A DNA stretch of 49,653 nucleotides from Methanobacteriota archaeon. Its GTDB lineage: Archaea; Thermoplasmatota; Thermoplasmata; SG8-5; DAIRED01. Of the stretch, positions 20,488-40,743 are shown piece by piece (the stretch's first letter is position 1; each line of letters opens with the position of its first letter). The position numbers and the translations under genes are program-made. The notes under the pieces are model-generated. The model did not search any database. It was not told where the DNA came from and was given only the letters and a program-made list of their open reading frames with translations. The stretch is taken from contig JAZDNO010000021.1 of the NCBI GenBank assembly GCA_043799545.1, positions 1 through 49,653 on the forward strand. Direction: 5' to 3'.

Positions 20488-20699
20488 GGGCCAGAAAACG
20501 AGGTGTGGCTATATAATCGTTTGGAGGGCGAGCTGATTTGGTTTTTCGGGGTTTAAGTGGGATTGTTGGTCCAGAAAATCTAATGGCTCAAGGATTAGTA
20601 AATGTAGTTCTTGAGCCAGATACGGCCTAACTCCTTGTTCGGAAAATGACGGAGGCCGGTAGTCCTATCCCGTCGGGCTCGGTTTTCAAAATAAATCCA

Positions 20700-20771
20700 T
20701 GCGCCCGACGGGATTCGAACCCGTGTAGCAAGCTTGGGAAGCTTGAATCCTAACCACTGGATTACGGGCGC
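20700..20771 (-). tRNA. tRNA-Gly: tRNA-Gly (anticodon CCC), no intron, CCA not encoded
   Basis: Acceptor stem GCGCCCG/CGGGCGC, anticodon arm CAAGC-TTCCCAA-GCTTG, 4-nt variable loop, T-arm ACGGG-TTCGAAT-CCCGT. Confidence 0.95.
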
Positions 20772-27055: not shown

Positions 27056-30000
27056 TCATGCCCGCGACGGGGAGCGTTGCGATTTCACGGCCGACACGCA
27101 TCTCGCGGCCTCGTCGAACTTGCCAAGCTTCGCCAGCACGTACCCCTTGTTTATCCAGACGTCTTGGTAATTGGGGTTCAGCTTGATCGCGCTGTTGTAC
27201 GATTTGAGCGCGTCCATGTACTTGCCCTGCCTTGCCAGCGAGTTGCCCTTGTTGTTCCATGCGACCTCCTGCTTCGGGTCGCGCTCGATGGCCTTGTCGA
27301 AGGCCGCCACCGCATCGCTGTGCCTGCCCATCTTCGTCAGGGCGTTGCCGAGATTTATCCACGTCATGGCGTTTTCGGGGTTTATCTTCAGCGCCATTTC
27401 GAGGCATCTCACGCCTTCCTCTACATCGCCGGACAGGACGAGCGCCACACCCTTCCGGGACCACGGGAGGTCGTATCCCTGGTTTGCCTTTTCTCCCTGA
27501 CGGGTCGCTCGCGACCGCATGTGGACTATCGCGTCGTCGTACGCCTGGACCGCCCTCGCATAATCGCTGCGCGAGTACCTCGAGTCCCCCCTCGCTATCG
27601 CCAGGTCCAGGGATTTGTGGCTGGCGTAATCCGCCATCGCCTCGACGCAGGCCGCCCCGAGCAGCGTCATCGTCACCCCTAGCATCGCCTGGGTGGATAT
27701 CGCCCCAGCGTCCGATATCTTCAGGCCCGCGAAAGTGAACAGCGTCACCGCGCTCGCGGCCCAGAGGGCGCGCTTCCGCCATCCCTTCGGCGCGGCGTAA
27801 GTGCCAAAGCCGGACAGGGCAAGCGCGACCGCGAAAAGCGCCGTGAAGAGCAGAGCGGAACTGTCAGCCACGATTGCCGTCAGGGGGAAAAGCGACGCCG
27901 AGACGGCGAACGGGGCTATCCATCGTGAAGACCTCCTCTCCAAGGCGGCGAGGCCGTTGACCCCCCTGGAAAAGGCGTATGCCACGATGACTACGGGCTG
28001 GAACAGGGCTATCAAGACAATCTGCAGCATGTTGGGGAATAGGAAGGAAGTCACCAGGAAAATGCAGAGAAGCATTCCCGTGAAAAATATCAGCAGATTG
28101 AGCAACACGGGTTCTTTCCAGGCGGGGATATCCTCCGAAACGGCGGAAAGGAACGATTCGCCTGCCTTCCCAGGTTCTTCCTCTGGTTGGTATTCGGGCT
28201 GCGGATGGGCTTCCTGGAAAGTTTCCTCGTCGGGGTTTGCCAACGGGGCGGCATTTTCGTTGATTTCTTCGGCGCTAAAGGCGTCTCCGGATACCGCGAT
28301 TTCCTGAATGGCGGTGACGGCTCCGGTCTCCGGATTCGGTTGCGCCTGAGCTTCCGGGCCGATGCCAGGGGGCTGCGTGCCATCAAGTTCTCTCTCCAAT
28401 TCCAGGACCGATGATGGGATTTCGTCGTCCTCCGAGGCTTCCGCTTCTTCCGGCTCGGGCATTTCCCCCATTGCAGATTCTATCTCGCTTATGGCGTCCT
28501 CGATCTCAGTGTCGAGGGCCGCGCTCCCGACATCCACGCGCTTCGTTGCCAATGGTGCCGCGCCTTCCTTTACCTCCTCCACAATGTCGTCGAGGCTGCC
28601 CCCGGACTCGATTTCATCGAGCATCTGGAGCTCTATACCGCCGACTACCGCATTCTCCGGCAGGCGGCCTTTCGCGGCCGGCTCGCTCACTGGCGCCTCC
28701 GCACCAGTCACGGGTTGCTCGGGCTCAGTCTCGACAAGCATCTGCTCAAGTCCGTCCAGCTCGCTTTCCACGTCGGCCGGTTGCGAACTTTTCGGAGGGA
28801 CGATATCCTTGCCTTTCTTTTTAGAGGGCTTCTCAAGATGCAAATCGTCCAGTTCCTGGTCCCTTTCCGAAGGATTTATCTTGGAGTCGACGATGGTATC
28901 TTTTTTCCTGCCATCATCCAACAATCCGCCCAAATCATCTTCGAGCAGACCATCTGCCATGAAATCCAAAGTCTCCAGCTCGTTCTCCATCTCCTCGAGT
29001 TCCTTCTCCGGGACCAACTGCGATTTTATATCCTGCGCGAAGACGAAACCGCATTCGCCGCAAGTCGTGGACCGTGAATCCACGTGCGCGCCGCAAAACG
29101 GGCACTCGGACGAGCCTCTCGGCATAGCCTCTCCCTCGTCCTCTGTCTTGAGCATCCTGAAAAGTTCGTCCACGTCGCTCCCAGCCCCCGCCCCGCACAT
29201 TGGGCACTTGGAGGTCTTCGCGGACATGAACGCCCCGCAATTGACGCATATGTCCAGTTCGGAACCCTTTGGCTCTTCGTGCGCCGCGTCTTCAAGCTCG
29301 TTCGCCCCCAACATCTGGATTAGAACATTTTCCGCGTCAGATAGGGTGTCGCGGTCCTTGCCCTCGAACCTCGGCAGCTCCGCCGGCAGCGCGGCGCCGC
29401 ACTTGCTGCACGAACCCTCGCCTTCCCGAGCGAAGCTCCCGCACCGCGGGCATACTACCAGCGCTTTCACCGCTGGGGCGCTTTCCATCTCCAGGTTCAA
29501 AGGCTCGTAGGCCGGCATCTCCGACCGGTCGGAATTGCACACCGGACATTTCGCACTCCCTTTCTGCATGAACGCGCCGCAGACTGTGCACACGTCGATG
29601 TTCGTCTCATCGAACACGGCGGGCGGCAACGTTTCAGGCGAACCCTTTACCTGGAGGACGCTTTTTATTACACCAGTAACGTCAGGCGTGTACGGCCTGA
29701 CTTCCGGCAGAACCTCGGGCCCATCCGTGTATTTTATCGTCTCCTCGTTCATGAGAGTCGCGCAAACACCGCAACGCTCCGAGCCTGGCTTGACGAACGC
29801 GCCGCACACGCCGCAAATCGCGACCCCGTATGCGAACGCTCCGCCCCGGGGCGCTTGCATTTGCCTTGCGCCGGGGATTTGAGGCTCCGAGCTTACGAGC
29901 ATGTCCAGAAGCTCGACGTCCTCCTTGGGGAGGCTGGGCTTGTCGGGTTTCACGGCCTGGCTCATGAGGGCGTTGCAGCTCGGGCACCTCTCCAAGCCTT

Positions 30001-30406
30001 CGATGGAGAAAGCTCCGCACGCCATGCAAAGCGCGAGCACCTGGTTCTCTGTTTTCTGCGCGGACGCGTCGATTGGATGGACCGCGTGCGCCGCCGGCTC
30101 GTCTGCCGGCGCTTCCTCCGAATCCTCGATGGCGATCCCGCACTGGGGGCACTTGACCGCGCTGGAAACGATGAACGCGCCGCACCCGGGGCACATGAAA
30201 ATCGATTCTGGCTCGCTCGCCGTCGCGCCTTTGGAAGATGATAAATCTGTAACGTCGTCGTCAAAGCCGTCGGTGGCGCCTTCGCCGCCCCCCCTGCCTT
30301 CGGCGGGCTTTCCGCACTGGGGGCACTTGACGGCGCTGGAGCTCATGAATGCGCCGCAATGCGGGCAAAGGTAGAGTGCGTCCGGCTCGTCACCCTTCTT
30401 GGGCAG
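27056..30406 (-). CDS. Eight zinc ribbons, acidic linker, about 6-7 TM helices, C-terminal TPR cluster
   Basis: 8 CxxC-G[AS][FH]-x7-CxxC units; TPRs ENAMTWINLGNAL, QEVAWNNKGNSL, QDVWINKGYVL. The start is uncertain (CTG 30406 proposed); the ORF-track start at 30784 overlaps the divergent gene. Confidence 0.8.
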   Translation of the reverse strand: MPKKGDEPDALYLCPHCGAFMSSSAVKCPQCGKPAEGRGGGEGATDGFDDDVTDLSSSKGATASEPESIFMCPGCGAFIVSSAVKCPQCGIAIEDSEEAPADEPAAHAVHPIDASAQKTENQVLALCMACGAFSIEGLERCPSCNALMSQAVKPDKPSLPKEDVELLDMLVSSEPQIPGARQMQAPRGGAFAYGVAICGVCGAFVKPGSERCGVCATLMNEETIKYTDGPEVLPEVRPYTPDVTGVIKSVLQVKGSPETLPPAVFDETNIDVCTVCGAFMQKGSAKCPVCNSDRSEMPAYEPLNLEMESAPAVKALVVCPRCGSFAREGEGSCSKCGAALPAELPRFEGKDRDTLSDAENVLIQMLGANELEDAAHEEPKGSELDICVNCGAFMSAKTSKCPMCGAGAGSDVDELFRMLKTEDEGEAMPRGSSECPFCGAHVDSRSTTCGECGFVFAQDIKSQLVPEKELEEMENELETLDFMADGLLEDDLGGLLDDGRKKDTIVDSKINPSERDQELDDLHLEKPSKKKGKDIVPPKSSQPADVESELDGLEQMLVETEPEQPVTGAEAPVSEPAAKGRLPENAVVGGIELQMLDEIESGGSLDDIVEEVKEGAAPLATKRVDVGSAALDTEIEDAISEIESAMGEMPEPEEAEASEDDEIPSSVLELERELDGTQPPGIGPEAQAQPNPETGAVTAIQEIAVSGDAFSAEEINENAAPLANPDEETFQEAHPQPEYQPEEEPGKAGESFLSAVSEDIPAWKEPVLLNLLIFFTGMLLCIFLVTSFLFPNMLQIVLIALFQPVVIVAYAFSRGVNGLAALERRSSRWIAPFAVSASLFPLTAIVADSSALLFTALFAVALALSGFGTYAAPKGWRKRALWAASAVTLFTFAGLKISDAGAISTQAMLGVTMTLLGAACVEAMADYASHKSLDLAIARGDSRYSRSDYARAVQAYDDAIVHMRSRATRQGEKANQGYDLPWSRKGVALVLSGDVEEGVRCLEMALKINPENAMTWINLGNALTKMGRHSDAVAAFDKAIERDPKQEVAWNNKGNSLARQGKYMDALKSYNSAIKLNPNYQDVWINKGYVLAKLGKFDEAARCVSAVKSQRSPSRA

Positions 30407-38623: not shown

Positions 38624-40147
38624 TCAACCCAGCGAGCCGACCTCCTTCTCGACGTCATGCAGTATCTCGCAGCTCTTCACGAGCGCCTTCATGGCGGTGT
38701 GGTCGGCATAAAGCGGCCTGTCAACGTCCAGGAACTTCACATGGCGGCGGATGACCTCCTTGGCCTTGTCTGTGCCCTTGCCGACCTTGTAATCCCTCAT
38801 ATCGAGGGCCTGGGCGGCGGCCATGAATTCTATGCCGAGGATGCCATACGCATTGTCCAATATCTGGAAGTTCTTTAAGGCCGTGTTCATGCCCATCGAG
38901 ACGAAGTCCTCCTGGTCTGCGGCGGCTGGGATGGATAGGATGCTTGCAGGCGCGGAGAGAATCCGCTGCTCTGTAATCAGCATGTCCGCGGTGTATTGGC
39001 TCAGCATCATGCCAGAGAACATGCCGGCACCCTTCGTCAAGAATGGCGGCAGCCCTTCGGACAGCGCCGGGTTGTTGAGCCGGTTCATCCTCCGCTCCGA
39101 GAGCACGCTGACCATGGTGACGACCGCGCCCGCGATGTCCATCGGGACGGATATCGGCGTGCCCTGGAAATTCGCGCCGGAAAGCTGGAGGTCCTCGTCC
39201 GGGAAGAAAACCGGGTTGTCCCCCACGCCGTTCATCTCCGTTTCAATCTGCTTTCTGGCGTATGCAAGCGCATCGTGGGCGCTGCCTATGACCTGGGGCG
39301 TCGAGCGCATCGAATAGGCGTCCTGAACCTTAATCTTGAGGCGCTTCTCCGCGAGGTCCCCTCCGGCTATCAACTTAAGGATCGATTTCGAGCTGCGTAT
39401 CGCGCCTGGAAATCCCCTCGCTTCGTGTATCTTGACATTGTACGGGCCCATGTTTGCCTTGAGCGCTTCAAGCGACATCGATGCGGCTATCTCGGCCTGC
39501 TTCAGCCAGTTGTTGGCGTCGTGCAGGAAGAGAGCGCTCATGGCGGTCATCAGATTGCATCCGTTTATCATCGCCAGCCCGTCCCTGGCCTTCAAGCCAG
39601 GCGGTTCGATGCCCGCGCGCTCCATCGCTTCTCGGCCTTCGAGAAGCTCTCCCTTATGGTAGGCCTTGCCCTCGCCCATCATCAGCAGCGCTATCTGGGA
39701 CATCGGCGCCAGGTCGCCGCACGCGCCGACGCTCCCTTTCTGGCAGACGAACGGCGTCACGCCGCCGTTGAGCATCTGCACGAGCGTCTGGGTCATGACC
39801 GGGCGCTGACCGGACTGCCCGTGCGAGTGAACGTTGCAGCGGAGAAGCATCGCCCCCCTGACATACTCGATGGGCGCCGGGTCGCCTATGCCAGCGGCAT
39901 GATTGTAGACAAGGTATTTCTGAAATTCCTTAATCTGCTCGGCGTTCAGGACGACCTCGGAGAACTCCCCGATGCCCGTGTTCACGCCGTACATTATCTC
40001 GCCCTTCTCGACCTTCCTCTCGAGCATCGCTCGGCATTTCTCCATGCGCTTTACCGCGTCAGGGTGGAGTTCGACCTTCTCGTTGTCCCGCGCCACTGCG
40101 ACGACCTGCTCAATGGTCAGGCTCTTGCCGTCGATTATGACAAACAT
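38624..40147 (-). CDS. hutH: Histidine ammonia-lyase (MIO aromatic amino acid lyase family)
   Basis: YGVNTGIG, NHAAG, GSVGACGDLAPM, GLAMING, VQDAYSMRSTPQV, QEDFVSM. Start moved to ATG 40147. Confidence 0.88.
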   Translation of the reverse strand: MFVIIDGKSLTIEQVVAVARDNEKVELHPDAVKRMEKCRAMLERKVEKGEIMYGVNTGIGEFSEVVLNAEQIKEFQKYLVYNHAAGIGDPAPIEYVRGAMLLRCNVHSHGQSGQRPVMTQTLVQMLNGGVTPFVCQKGSVGACGDLAPMSQIALLMMGEGKAYHKGELLEGREAMERAGIEPPGLKARDGLAMINGCNLMTAMSALFLHDANNWLKQAEIAASMSLEALKANMGPYNVKIHEARGFPGAIRSSKSILKLIAGGDLAEKRLKIKVQDAYSMRSTPQVIGSAHDALAYARKQIETEMNGVGDNPVFFPDEDLQLSGANFQGTPISVPMDIAGAVVTMVSVLSERRMNRLNNPALSEGLPPFLTKGAGMFSGMMLSQYTADMLITEQRILSAPASILSIPAAADQEDFVSMGMNTALKNFQILDNAYGILGIEFMAAAQALDMRDYKVGKGTDKAKEVIRRHVKFLDVDRPLYADHTAMKALVKSCEILHDVEKEVGSLG

Positions 40148-40233
40148 GGTAATACGACCTGCGGGGCCCCAGAAGGTTGAGAAAGTAATAAAGATATGCG
40201 CCCTCTGCCAGCTACGAAAATCGTGCGTGCGGA

Positions 40234-40396
40234 GTTCGAATCCCTCCTCTATAAAAAATATTGGCGGGCGCTTGGCATCCAATTTGGGCAAGGCTTCCTA
40301 ATTGTCTTCCTTGCCCAAACTTCGGACGAGCACTTTGCACGTTTGTGGGCTCGTCCTCGTTCGAATCCCTCCTCTATCAAAATATTAACGGGCGCG
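40234..40396 (+). repeat. Two ~38-bp imperfect direct repeats, each containing an inverted copy of the tRNA-Arg T-arm, separated by two hairpins
   Basis: gttcgaatccctcctctat at 40234 and 40359 (19 nt identical), each followed by aaaatatt..cgggcgc. Hairpins tttgggcaagg/ccttgcccaaa and ggacgagc/gctcgtcc lie between them. Confidence 0.85.
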
Positions 40397-40463
40397 GAGG
40401 GATTCGAACCCTCGACATTCAGCTTAGGAGGCTGACGCTATATCCGGTCTAAGCCACGCGCCC
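40389..40463 (-). tRNA. tRNA-Arg: tRNA-Arg (anticodon CCT), no intron, CCA not encoded
   Basis: Acceptor stem GGGCGCG/CGCGCCC, anticodon arm TCAGC-CTCCTAA-GCTGA, T-arm GAGGG-TTCGAAT-CCCTC. Confidence 0.95.
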
Positions 40464-40504: not shown

Positions 40505-40545
40505 GCCACAAAGGGTAGCATCTTAAAAACGTTTCCCTTTGTGGC
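40505..40545. promoter_or_regulatory. 11-bp inverted repeat enclosing a TATA-like box upstream of tRNA-Arg
   Basis: gccacaaaggg (40505-40515) and ccctttgtggc (40535-40545) flank a 19-nt spacer that reads TTTTTAAG on the minus strand. Confidence 0.5.
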
Positions 40546-40579: not shown

Positions 40580-40743
40580 TATCCGGTCTAAGCCACGCGC
40601 CCTCTTATCAATGGTTTTTCGCTCTCGGGCGGGCTTAGCCCTTACCTCGGCGAGCGACGCATTTTGGCGATTCTCGCCTTCGGTCCGGTCTAAGCCACGC
40701 GCGTTCTTCTTGATTGCATACGTTTGGGTCTAGGCCACGCGCC
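40580..40743 (-). repeat. Three upstream copies of the tRNA-Arg 5' end
   Basis: 40580-40603 is a 24/24 match to 40441-40464; 40684-40702 matches 19/19; 40727-40743 matches 16/17. Confidence 0.9.

Follow-up and report, generated by a model that had tools for sequence, protein, structure and literature searches.

Antisense mirror arms and hairpin cassettes behind the stable RNA genes of an archaeal order

Stable RNA genes in an order of Thermoplasmatota archaea can carry, usually after a loop of 23-24 nt, an exact antisense copy (arm) of their own 3' end, with gene-less hairpins behind it. Arms of recurrent anatomy are spread across the order, the arm tracks the sequence of its gene, the hairpins fold equally well on both DNA strands, and the hairpin cassettes turn over between genomes. 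These modules are tentatively read here as DNA-level features composed of gene-anchored palindromic pads and small, mobile, gene-less hairpin cassettes, a plausible interpretation that we place just short of an even chance. The pad would comprise the last 9-17 nt of the gene, a loop of usually 23-24 nt (the final bases plus an oligo-T terminator) and the exact reverse complement. The cassettes, made up of hp1, hp2 and in many cases an extra direct copy of the gene's 3' end, would lie directly behind the pad, duplicate in tandem and move between pads. The window that was analysed, 49,653 nt in length, is contig C5 of a 2.06-Mb, 31-contig genome (G000) that is 94% complete.

The tRNA-Arg(CCT) gene of the window carries such a module, and tRNA-Gly(CCC) has the same design with a 12-nt arm and a 24-nt loop (Table 1). 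Direct inspection of the sequence shows that GTTCGAATCCCTCC at 40359-40372 is perfectly reverse-complementary to 40396-40409. Read in the direction of the tRNA, the gene ends in GTTCGAATCCCTCC-GCGCCCG and is followed by the 16-nt T-rich trailer TTAATATTTTGATAGA and then by the arm GGAGGGATTCGAAC (40359-40372). A second copy of the arm is offset by 125 bp, and the two hairpins, hp1 and hp2, lie between the copies. The earlier note, drawn from the letters of this stretch, had given the 14-nt perfect reverse complement, its 23-nt spacer, the 125-bp offset and the 12-nt/24-nt geometry at tRNA-Gly, and all of these coordinates are correct. On the plus strand, the distal unit runs from the arm (40234-40247) through a 14-nt spacer (40248-40261) to TGGCGGGCGC (40262-40271). 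The distal repeat begins exactly at tRNA position 67, which is the 3' edge of the in-gene arm (S), and the unit stops at the leader of a putative ammonia-lyase gene. On the pad-and-cassette reading, two copies of the pad in the tRNA-Arg trailer enclose a single full cassette (40272-40358). The folding energy of this trailer is -53.6 kcal/mol (z = -3.7), and an Rfam search of the trailers returned no family matches, even at E = 10.

Table 1. Coordinates of the tRNA-Arg(CCT) and tRNA-Gly(CCC) modules within the window. S, in-gene arm; S', antisense copy of S.
Feature	Position	Strand	Remarks
tRNA-Arg(CCT) gene, no encoded CCA	40389..40463	minus	ARAGORN; Rfam RF00005, 66.5 bits
S, in-gene arm: tRNA positions 53-66 (T-loop, T-stem 3' strand, first acceptor base)	40396..40409	minus	exact 14-nt complement of 40359-40372
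23-nt loop: last 7 nt of the tRNA (40389-40395) and 16-nt T-rich trailer with presumed oligo-T terminator	40373..40395	minus	
Proximal S', exact antisense of S	40359..40372	minus	0/200 shuffles reach such length
hp1, short form of the conserved GGAC...GTCC hairpin; stem 40324-40331 / 40349-40356, 8 bp	40324..40356	minus	
hp2, 11-bp hairpin TTTGGGCAAGG / CCTTGCCCAAA, common to tRNA-Gln modules	40283..40319	minus	
11-nt linker from hp2 to the repeated gene end	40272..40282	minus	equal 11-nt length in the two units of the sister genome and at tRNA-Gln
Distal unit without hairpins: GCGCCCG-CCA (40262-40271), 14-nt spacer (40248-40261), second S' (40234-40247)	40234..40271	minus	
11-bp hairpin of the upstream (5') module	40505..40545	minus	
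Direct copy of tRNA-Arg positions 1-23, promoter-like motif in front as at other tRNAs	40580..40602	minus	
tRNA-Gly(CCC), same design, whole module	20585..20771	minus	gene 20700-20771; S 20703-20714; S' 20667-20678; hp1 20623-20665; hp2 20585-20617

The distal copy reads GCGCCCG-CCA on the tRNA strand, but the tRNA-Arg gene itself reads GCGCCCG-TTA. The distal CCA raised the idea of a retro-copy of the mature tRNA, which was rejected because the sister genome and some relatives encode CCA at tRNA-Arg and a search of G000 (94% complete) yielded no reverse transcriptase. Next to the modules of tRNA-Arg, on their downstream side, a gene at 38624-40148 (minus strand) starts MFVIIDGKSLTIEQV and, judged by eye, is histidine or phenylalanine ammonia-lyase-like. 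Upstream of the tRNA-Arg gene, direct copies of its 5' end are present at 40580-40602, 40684-40702 and 40734-40743, with decay that grows with distance; the AAAAC..TTGA motif ahead of the nearest copy also precedes other tRNAs. The tRNA-Ile, tRNA-Met and tRNA-Glu genes have upstream modules with antisense copies of the D-arm region and, thus, the 5' side mirrors the 3' design.

The arms are prevalent among the tRNA genes of the genome. A perfect antisense copy (10-16 nt) of the gene's own 3' region is located within 40 nt downstream of 16 of the 40 tRNAs called by ARAGORN, whereas none of 200 shuffles reached the observed arm length and the upstream control yielded at most 9 nt. Perfect inverted repeats of at least 10 nt, counted throughout the genome, peak at loop lengths of 23 and 24 nt, and 17 of the 24 repeats with such loops reside at tRNA 3' ends or copies thereof. 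Chance origin is ruled out by the shuffles, the upstream control and this genome-wide loop spectrum. Beyond the genome of the window, arms are present at 15 loci of the sister genome (G001) and at 9 of 30 tRNAs of a genome from another family of the order (G003), where every loop is 23 or 24 nt; the complete genome of a class-level outgroup (G030) has arms at 0 of 30 tRNAs. These counts support the earlier claim that the pattern is a lineage-wide design and not chance, and absence from other tRNA loci, the observation that the earlier note had named as refuting it, is clearly not the case. Orthologs of the tRNA-Arg gene beyond the genus are mostly without an arm. The modal loop length of 23-24 nt is common to three genomes and to all three RNA classes in which arms occur (tRNA, SRP RNA and RNase P RNA), and the modules are always oriented on the strand of the gene, between two T-rich tracts.

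The SRP RNA gene of G000 (C20:16590-16900; Rfam RF01857, 139 bits) has one copy of hp1 behind it. The last 10-11 nt of this gene are mirrored 20-22 nt downstream, and hp1 and hp2 follow. Across three families of the order (f2, f3 and f4), the two arms of the SRP RNA module co-vary (CTCAGCAGCC/GGCTGCTGAG, ATCGGTGCCTAGC/GCTAGGCACCGAT and CTGGCACAA/TTGTGCCAG), and the module is kept in place across several genera, with compensatory changes in its stems. An RNAalifold analysis of the SRP-linked modules from six genomes of one genus and G000 reveals three helices, with double changes in 12 of 30 pairs; thus, some process maintains the palindromes. No SRP RNA arms are detected in the class-level outgroups examined and, in the sister genome, SRP RNA is not accompanied by a module. 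In the sister, the SRP RNA gene is inverted and moved across tRNA-Gly(TCC) (G000 C20:16185-17100 versus G001 C254), with breakpoints in module-rich DNA.

RNase P RNA genes of the order are similarly armed, with arm and loop lengths of 15 and 24 nt (G004), 14 and 24 nt (G007) and 9 and 24 nt (G006), and with longer loops in two further genomes (G010 and G012). The full RNase P RNA gene was not found in the G000 assembly (no match to RF00373) but is present in the sister genome and most of the order. A displaced 3' fragment of about 46 nt is located in G000 at C12:~97,980-98,300 (locus L064), after AT-rich, foreign-looking DNA, and bears an array of three or four units of S, spacer, S' and hairpin. 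Loss of RNase P was considered as a cause of the modules and rejected, as the sister genome and most of the order keep RF00373 and G000 keeps the displaced 3' fragment. The 5S rRNA gene has no arm.

The arms follow their genes in sequence. A comparison of eight loci orthologous between the sister species gives a spacer identity of only 66% (117/176), yet the arms are fully complementary at all eight (8/8). At least five gene substitutions between the sister species, at tRNA-Ile, tRNA-Thr(GGT) and tRNA-Leu(TAA), are mirrored in the arm. The G49.U65 pair of tRNA-Leu(TAA) is informative: the arm has A at this position and, thus, was not copied from the 5' strand but pairs in Watson-Crick fashion with the 3' strand. 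Arms are nearly always exact; the rare mismatches are of mixed types (including those of G003 and G012 at SRP RNA and tRNA-Leu(TAG)), and their counts are too low to use. The arm does not keep a constant register with the mature 3' end; the difference spans 0 to 11 nt.

The hairpin cassettes have a conserved core that is found behind many genes. A search with nhmmer finds 15 copies of the long form of hp1 in G000, all behind the 3' ends of stable RNA genes or fragments of such. Within G000, the hp1 hairpins of SRP RNA and tRNA-Gly(CCC) have an identical loop and unrelated arms; within the sister genome, those of tRNA-Gln(TTG) and tRNA-Val(CAC) are about 90% identical, each with the arm of its own gene. 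Thus, each arm is templated at its own locus and is not passed on together with the core. Cassette types at tRNA-Thr(CGT), tRNA-Phe and tRNA-Gly(CCC) differ between the two sister genomes, and tRNA-Arg has one full unit in G000 versus at least two in the sister. Pads free of cassettes are also noted, namely at the SRP RNA of another genome (G002), the distal tRNA-Arg unit and the distal tRNA-Gln unit. In the three type-A loci (Arg, Gln and Ile), tRNA position 67, where the matched segment has its 3' edge, is precisely the point at which the repeated unit begins; type-B units, such as that of tRNA-Gly(CCC), have no clear direct copy of the gene end. Direct copies of the gene end are 13-22 nt at tRNA-Thr, tRNA-Cys, tRNA-Leu(CAG), tRNA-Tyr, tRNA-Pro and others, and only 7-10 nt (GCGCCCG-CCA) at tRNA-Arg. 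No clean pair of filled and empty sites with intact flanks was found, as tRNA-Gly(CCC) is filled differently in both species and the SRP RNA flank is rearranged; insertion boundaries are therefore taken solely from the edges of the repeats.

Two further arrangements are noted in G000. A 1-kb membrane-protein gene on the opposite strand (C6:45900-47310) is bracketed by copies of the tRNA-Thr 3' end. The distal copy has a 30-nt spacer and an antisense T-arm and, thus, pads can also flank kilobase-sized cargo. A separate dispersed palindrome, GCTTTCTTTG-27 nt-CAAAGAAAGC, is found at ten loci (e.g., C22:103490-103544 and C10:27384-27430); it has no tie to tRNAs in G000 and occurs in the tRNA-Met trailer of the sister.

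Whether the modules act as DNA or RNA was addressed in 31 modules by folding both strands of the 95-nt stretch that follows the arm, with 65 tRNAs as control. The modules fold equally well on the gene strand and its opposite (means of -31.66 vs -31.53 kcal/mol; Wilcoxon p = 0.74), with 63 vs 61 G.U pairs. The tRNA control is strongly asymmetric (-33.3 vs -29.9 kcal/mol, p = 1e-10; 148 vs 81 G.U pairs; n = 65). Thus, the hairpins behave as DNA palindromes and not as helices selected in a transcript of one strand; neither module folding nor G.U content has the transcribed-strand preference sought as a mark of a selected structured non-coding RNA. Guide RNAs of the Box C/D, H/ACA or K-turn type were rejected, as no C/D boxes and no C-stem are apparent by eye. 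A BHB splice motif was also sought in hp1; a 3-nt bulge and a 4-bp helix are present there, whereas the second bulge is missing.

An RNA-level role as a 3'-trailer element is nonetheless a serious possibility, although we place it on the unlikely side. Read-through RNA would contain the arm and hairpins, and the arm would pair with the 3' end of the RNA or with the spare copy to form an acceptor-like helix. Such a trailer helix could, with the same limited likelihood, direct processing, back-up termination, disposal of read-through transcripts or release of small RNAs like RrA/B/F. Several features are consistent with this role, including the constant placement of modules on the gene strand, just past the terminator and ahead of a second T-rich tract, the order-wide SRP RNA design with its double changes in 12 of 30 pairs, and the likeness of hp2 to an acceptor stem followed by A. 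In addition, read-through transcription, processing and binding to Hfq and CsrA are described for those tRNA-linked repeats of Escherichia coli that follow 5S rRNA (PMC8144298). By contrast, hairpin folding and G.U content lack strand asymmetry in a test that is strongly positive for tRNA, the arms are almost always exact with mismatches of mixed types, and a register of 0 to 11 nt from the mature 3' end cannot fix a cleavage site. The sister genome, moreover, does without an SRP RNA module, and a tRNA paired with the arm would lose the fold of its T-arm and acceptor stem. Control of pre-tRNA folding or of termination, which the earlier note had offered as one reading, is likewise not favoured in view of the oligo-T terminator between tRNA and arm, the lack of strand bias and the missing SRP module of the sister.

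Tyrosine-recombinase genes adjoin three tRNAs, all of which are without arms. A displaced end of tRNA-Glu (C22:690-748) retains a 24-nt loop and arm; thus, the insertion point of integrase elements falls between the gene and its arm, which places the arm on the host side. Since the integrase-bearing elements sit between gene and arm, the arms do not obviously block integration, the one observation that bears on the decoy role against integrating viruses raised in the earlier note. It is very improbable that the modules are decayed att-site scars of successive tyrosine-integrase integrations at the 3' ends of stable RNA genes. Scars of this type would account for gene-end copies at +67 to +110 and 5'-end copies at -70 to -140, with the outer copies more decayed, as well as for the integrase gene next to three tRNAs and the 1.3-kb gene bracketed by tRNA-Thr end copies on C6. 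However, they would not hold a 23-24-nt geometry or exact complementarity while spacers diverge to 66%, and they leave unexplained the conserved cassette cores common to about 20 different genes, the armless state of the three integrase-adjoining tRNAs and the 24-nt loop and arm on the host side of the tRNA-Glu fragment.

A benefit to the host at the DNA level is quite improbable as well. The arm would serve single-copy essential RNA genes either as a repair template for 3' ends damaged by integrases or as an anti-integration structure. In keeping with such a role, the arm spans the terminal 10-17 nt, which is the integrase crossover core at tRNA-Glu, is kept exact at the DNA level and belongs to a design whose host genes (tRNAs, SRP RNA and RNase P RNA) each occur once in these genomes. 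Yet integrated elements are present at genes that were once armed (the tRNA-Glu and RNase P RNA fragments), selection for a repair template would be second-order and weak, and the 5S rRNA and half of the tRNAs are without arms.

The genome was also screened for enzymes of known insertion systems. Cas1, IS110 transposase and reverse transcriptase genes are not found in G000 (94% complete), and one small serine recombinase (resolvase) gene is present. Casposon or CRISPR-like integration was rejected for the missing Cas1, and an IS110 bridge RNA for the missing IS110 transposase of G000. The att site of a large serine integrase, suggested by the symmetric site of about 50 bp, was rejected because the only serine recombinase gene is the small resolvase and because the arms are too variable for recognition by a protein.

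Three Y1 genes are encoded by G000. One of these is single copy in every genome of the order that is at least 85% complete, is located next to tRNA-Leu in families f1 and f4, and is not found in seven of nine class-level outgroups. The encoded protein scores 109 bits against NF033573 (IS200) and 19 bits against the RAYT model NF047646 (cut-off of 80); it is an IS200-type TnpA, not a RAYT. The hairpin beside this gene is unique in G000 and unlike hp1 or hp2, hp1 and hp2 have no similarity to the flanks of the three Y1 genes of G000, and only one of the hairpins at the Y1 gene of genus g3 is hp1-like. As its co-occurrence with the modules falls within one clade, it counts as a single phylogenetic event. 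Thus, as a mover of cassettes, the Y1 enzyme is the sole candidate seen and a weak one, a lead and not a link.

The surroundings of the conserved Y1 gene have features of their own. The locus of G000 (C25:29915-30582; L056) comprises, in this order, the Y1 gene (29915-30370), the hairpin TCCGCATT...AATGCGGA, a decayed tRNA-Leu copy (positions 2-58) and an intact tRNA-Leu. Two families have this layout in common, with orthologous loci in G001, G004 and G011, and the motif ACAAGCCTCGTCTGTAAGGGCGGGGTATA is conserved near the Y1 locus in four families. In genus g3 (L173, L174 and L108), conserved hairpins take up about 230 nt behind the conserved Y1 gene, and a truncated second Y1 copy that starts at the HVH motif comes next.

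For the pads and cassettes that we tentatively favour, a mechanism can be proposed. The exactness of the arms may stem from DNA-level copying, either through template switching in the quasi-palindrome or through re-templating at insertion, while the cassettes may be moved in trans by a structure-specific enzyme that acts on single-stranded DNA. We know of no mechanism by which a target would be copied in inverted form at a constant spacing of 23-24 nt, which counts against this interpretation, as does the want of an enzyme linked to the modules. Conservation of the SRP module with compensatory changes would also fit a function, and the placement of modules on the gene strand between T-rich tracts resembles that of E. 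coli RrB, which is transcribed by read-through (PMC8144298). The second reading of the earlier note, a tRNA-targeting element that copies and inverts its target, agrees in part with these data: the arms are locally templated and the cores have unrelated arms, but the target is not specific to tRNA, as SRP RNA and RNase P RNA are also used. Of the readings in that note, 'copies and inverts its target' comes closest to the data. It is conceivable, if distinctly unlikely, that undescribed miniature DNA elements of this order (and of the E. coli repeat loci, by convergence or transfer) land at stable RNA 3' ends and, during insertion or upkeep, synthesise an inverted copy of the gene end at a ruler-like spacing of 23-24 nt, possibly by use of a domesticated Y1 HUH enzyme. 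To our knowledge, a templated 'copy and invert' step of this kind is not known for any transposase or recombinase.

The modules matter in several respects. With three RNA classes, a sharp 23-24-nt geometry and exact co-variation, the tRNA-linked repeat (TLR), a curiosity of 1978, becomes testable by comparison. If the arms come from a templated DNA step, mobile-element biology would gain a new reaction; should the modules work as RNA, a new layer would be added to the 3'-end biology of archaeal stable RNAs. On the practical side, modules interrupt metagenome-assembled genomes where tRNA genes lie, which is seen in the sister genome; they also give rise to spurious tRNA fragments and flag places of inversion and cargo capture.

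Among known systems, the REP/REPIN-RAYT elements and the PATEs of the IS200/IS605 family are likewise short extragenic palindromes with compensatory arm changes, vertical persistence and a single-copy Y1 HUH gene. Unlike REP/REPIN systems, the Y1 gene here is not RAYT-class and is not flanked by copies of hp1 or hp2, and REPs have no tie to stable RNA genes and do not copy neighbouring sequence. Unlike PATEs, hp1 and hp2 have no homology to the flanks of the resident Y1 genes. The left end of IS200/IS605 elements, as worked out for IS608, consists of a cleavage site, a linker, a guide of 4-5 nt and a hairpin. This order is reminiscent of the modules, in which a target, a linker of fixed length, the complement of the target and a hairpin succeed one another; however, the arm here is 9-17 nt and not inherited with the element. 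A heritable guide in the style of IS608 is disfavoured, as near-identical cores bear unrelated arms. The attL/attR sites of tyrosine integrases share with the modules the direct gene-end copies beside an intact gene, the tandem accretion and the occasional cargo. By contrast, the archaeal units are about 100-130 bp, have no ORF or integrase gene and contain an inverted copy, and the integrase elements of G000 are without an arm.

The TLRs of E. coli have reportedly been known since 1978, when Egan and Landy are said to have described the 178-bp repeat units of tyrT/tyrV (rtT). In each of the three 178-bp tyrT units of strain MG1655, a 10-nt stretch, GGGGAAGGAT, is antisense to the T-stem and acceptor of tRNA-Tyr and precedes the direct copy by about 90 nt. 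In total, 22 TLR units are described from ten loci behind tRNA or 5S rRNA genes, and they are mostly without a function so far (Stenum et al. 2021, PMC8144298). Their 3' ends repeat the last 18-19 nt of the upstream gene. RrA/B/F arise from read-through transcription, undergo processing close to the repeated 3' end and associate with Hfq and CsrA (PMC8144298). Like TLRs, the archaeal modules are gene-less, arranged in tandem and located directly behind stable RNA genes in the same orientation (all modules and all 15 long hp1 copies), and they share with the tyrT repeat the order of spacer, antisense arm, core and sense copy. Unlike TLRs, in which the arm is about 67 nt from its partner in the gene, the archaeal arm is usually 23-24 nt away; the modules are found at about 40% of tRNAs as well as at SRP RNA and RNase P RNA, many have an antisense arm without a direct copy, and the host belongs to a different domain of life. 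In sequence, the archaeal trailers resemble neither the TLRs of E. coli nor the Rfam family RtT (RF00391), and no description of these modules was found in the literature searched. By analogy of layout, the modules may be regarded as the archaeal counterpart of TLRs, their closest known relatives in design, with a tighter geometry, a wider set of host genes and a distribution that spans a whole order.
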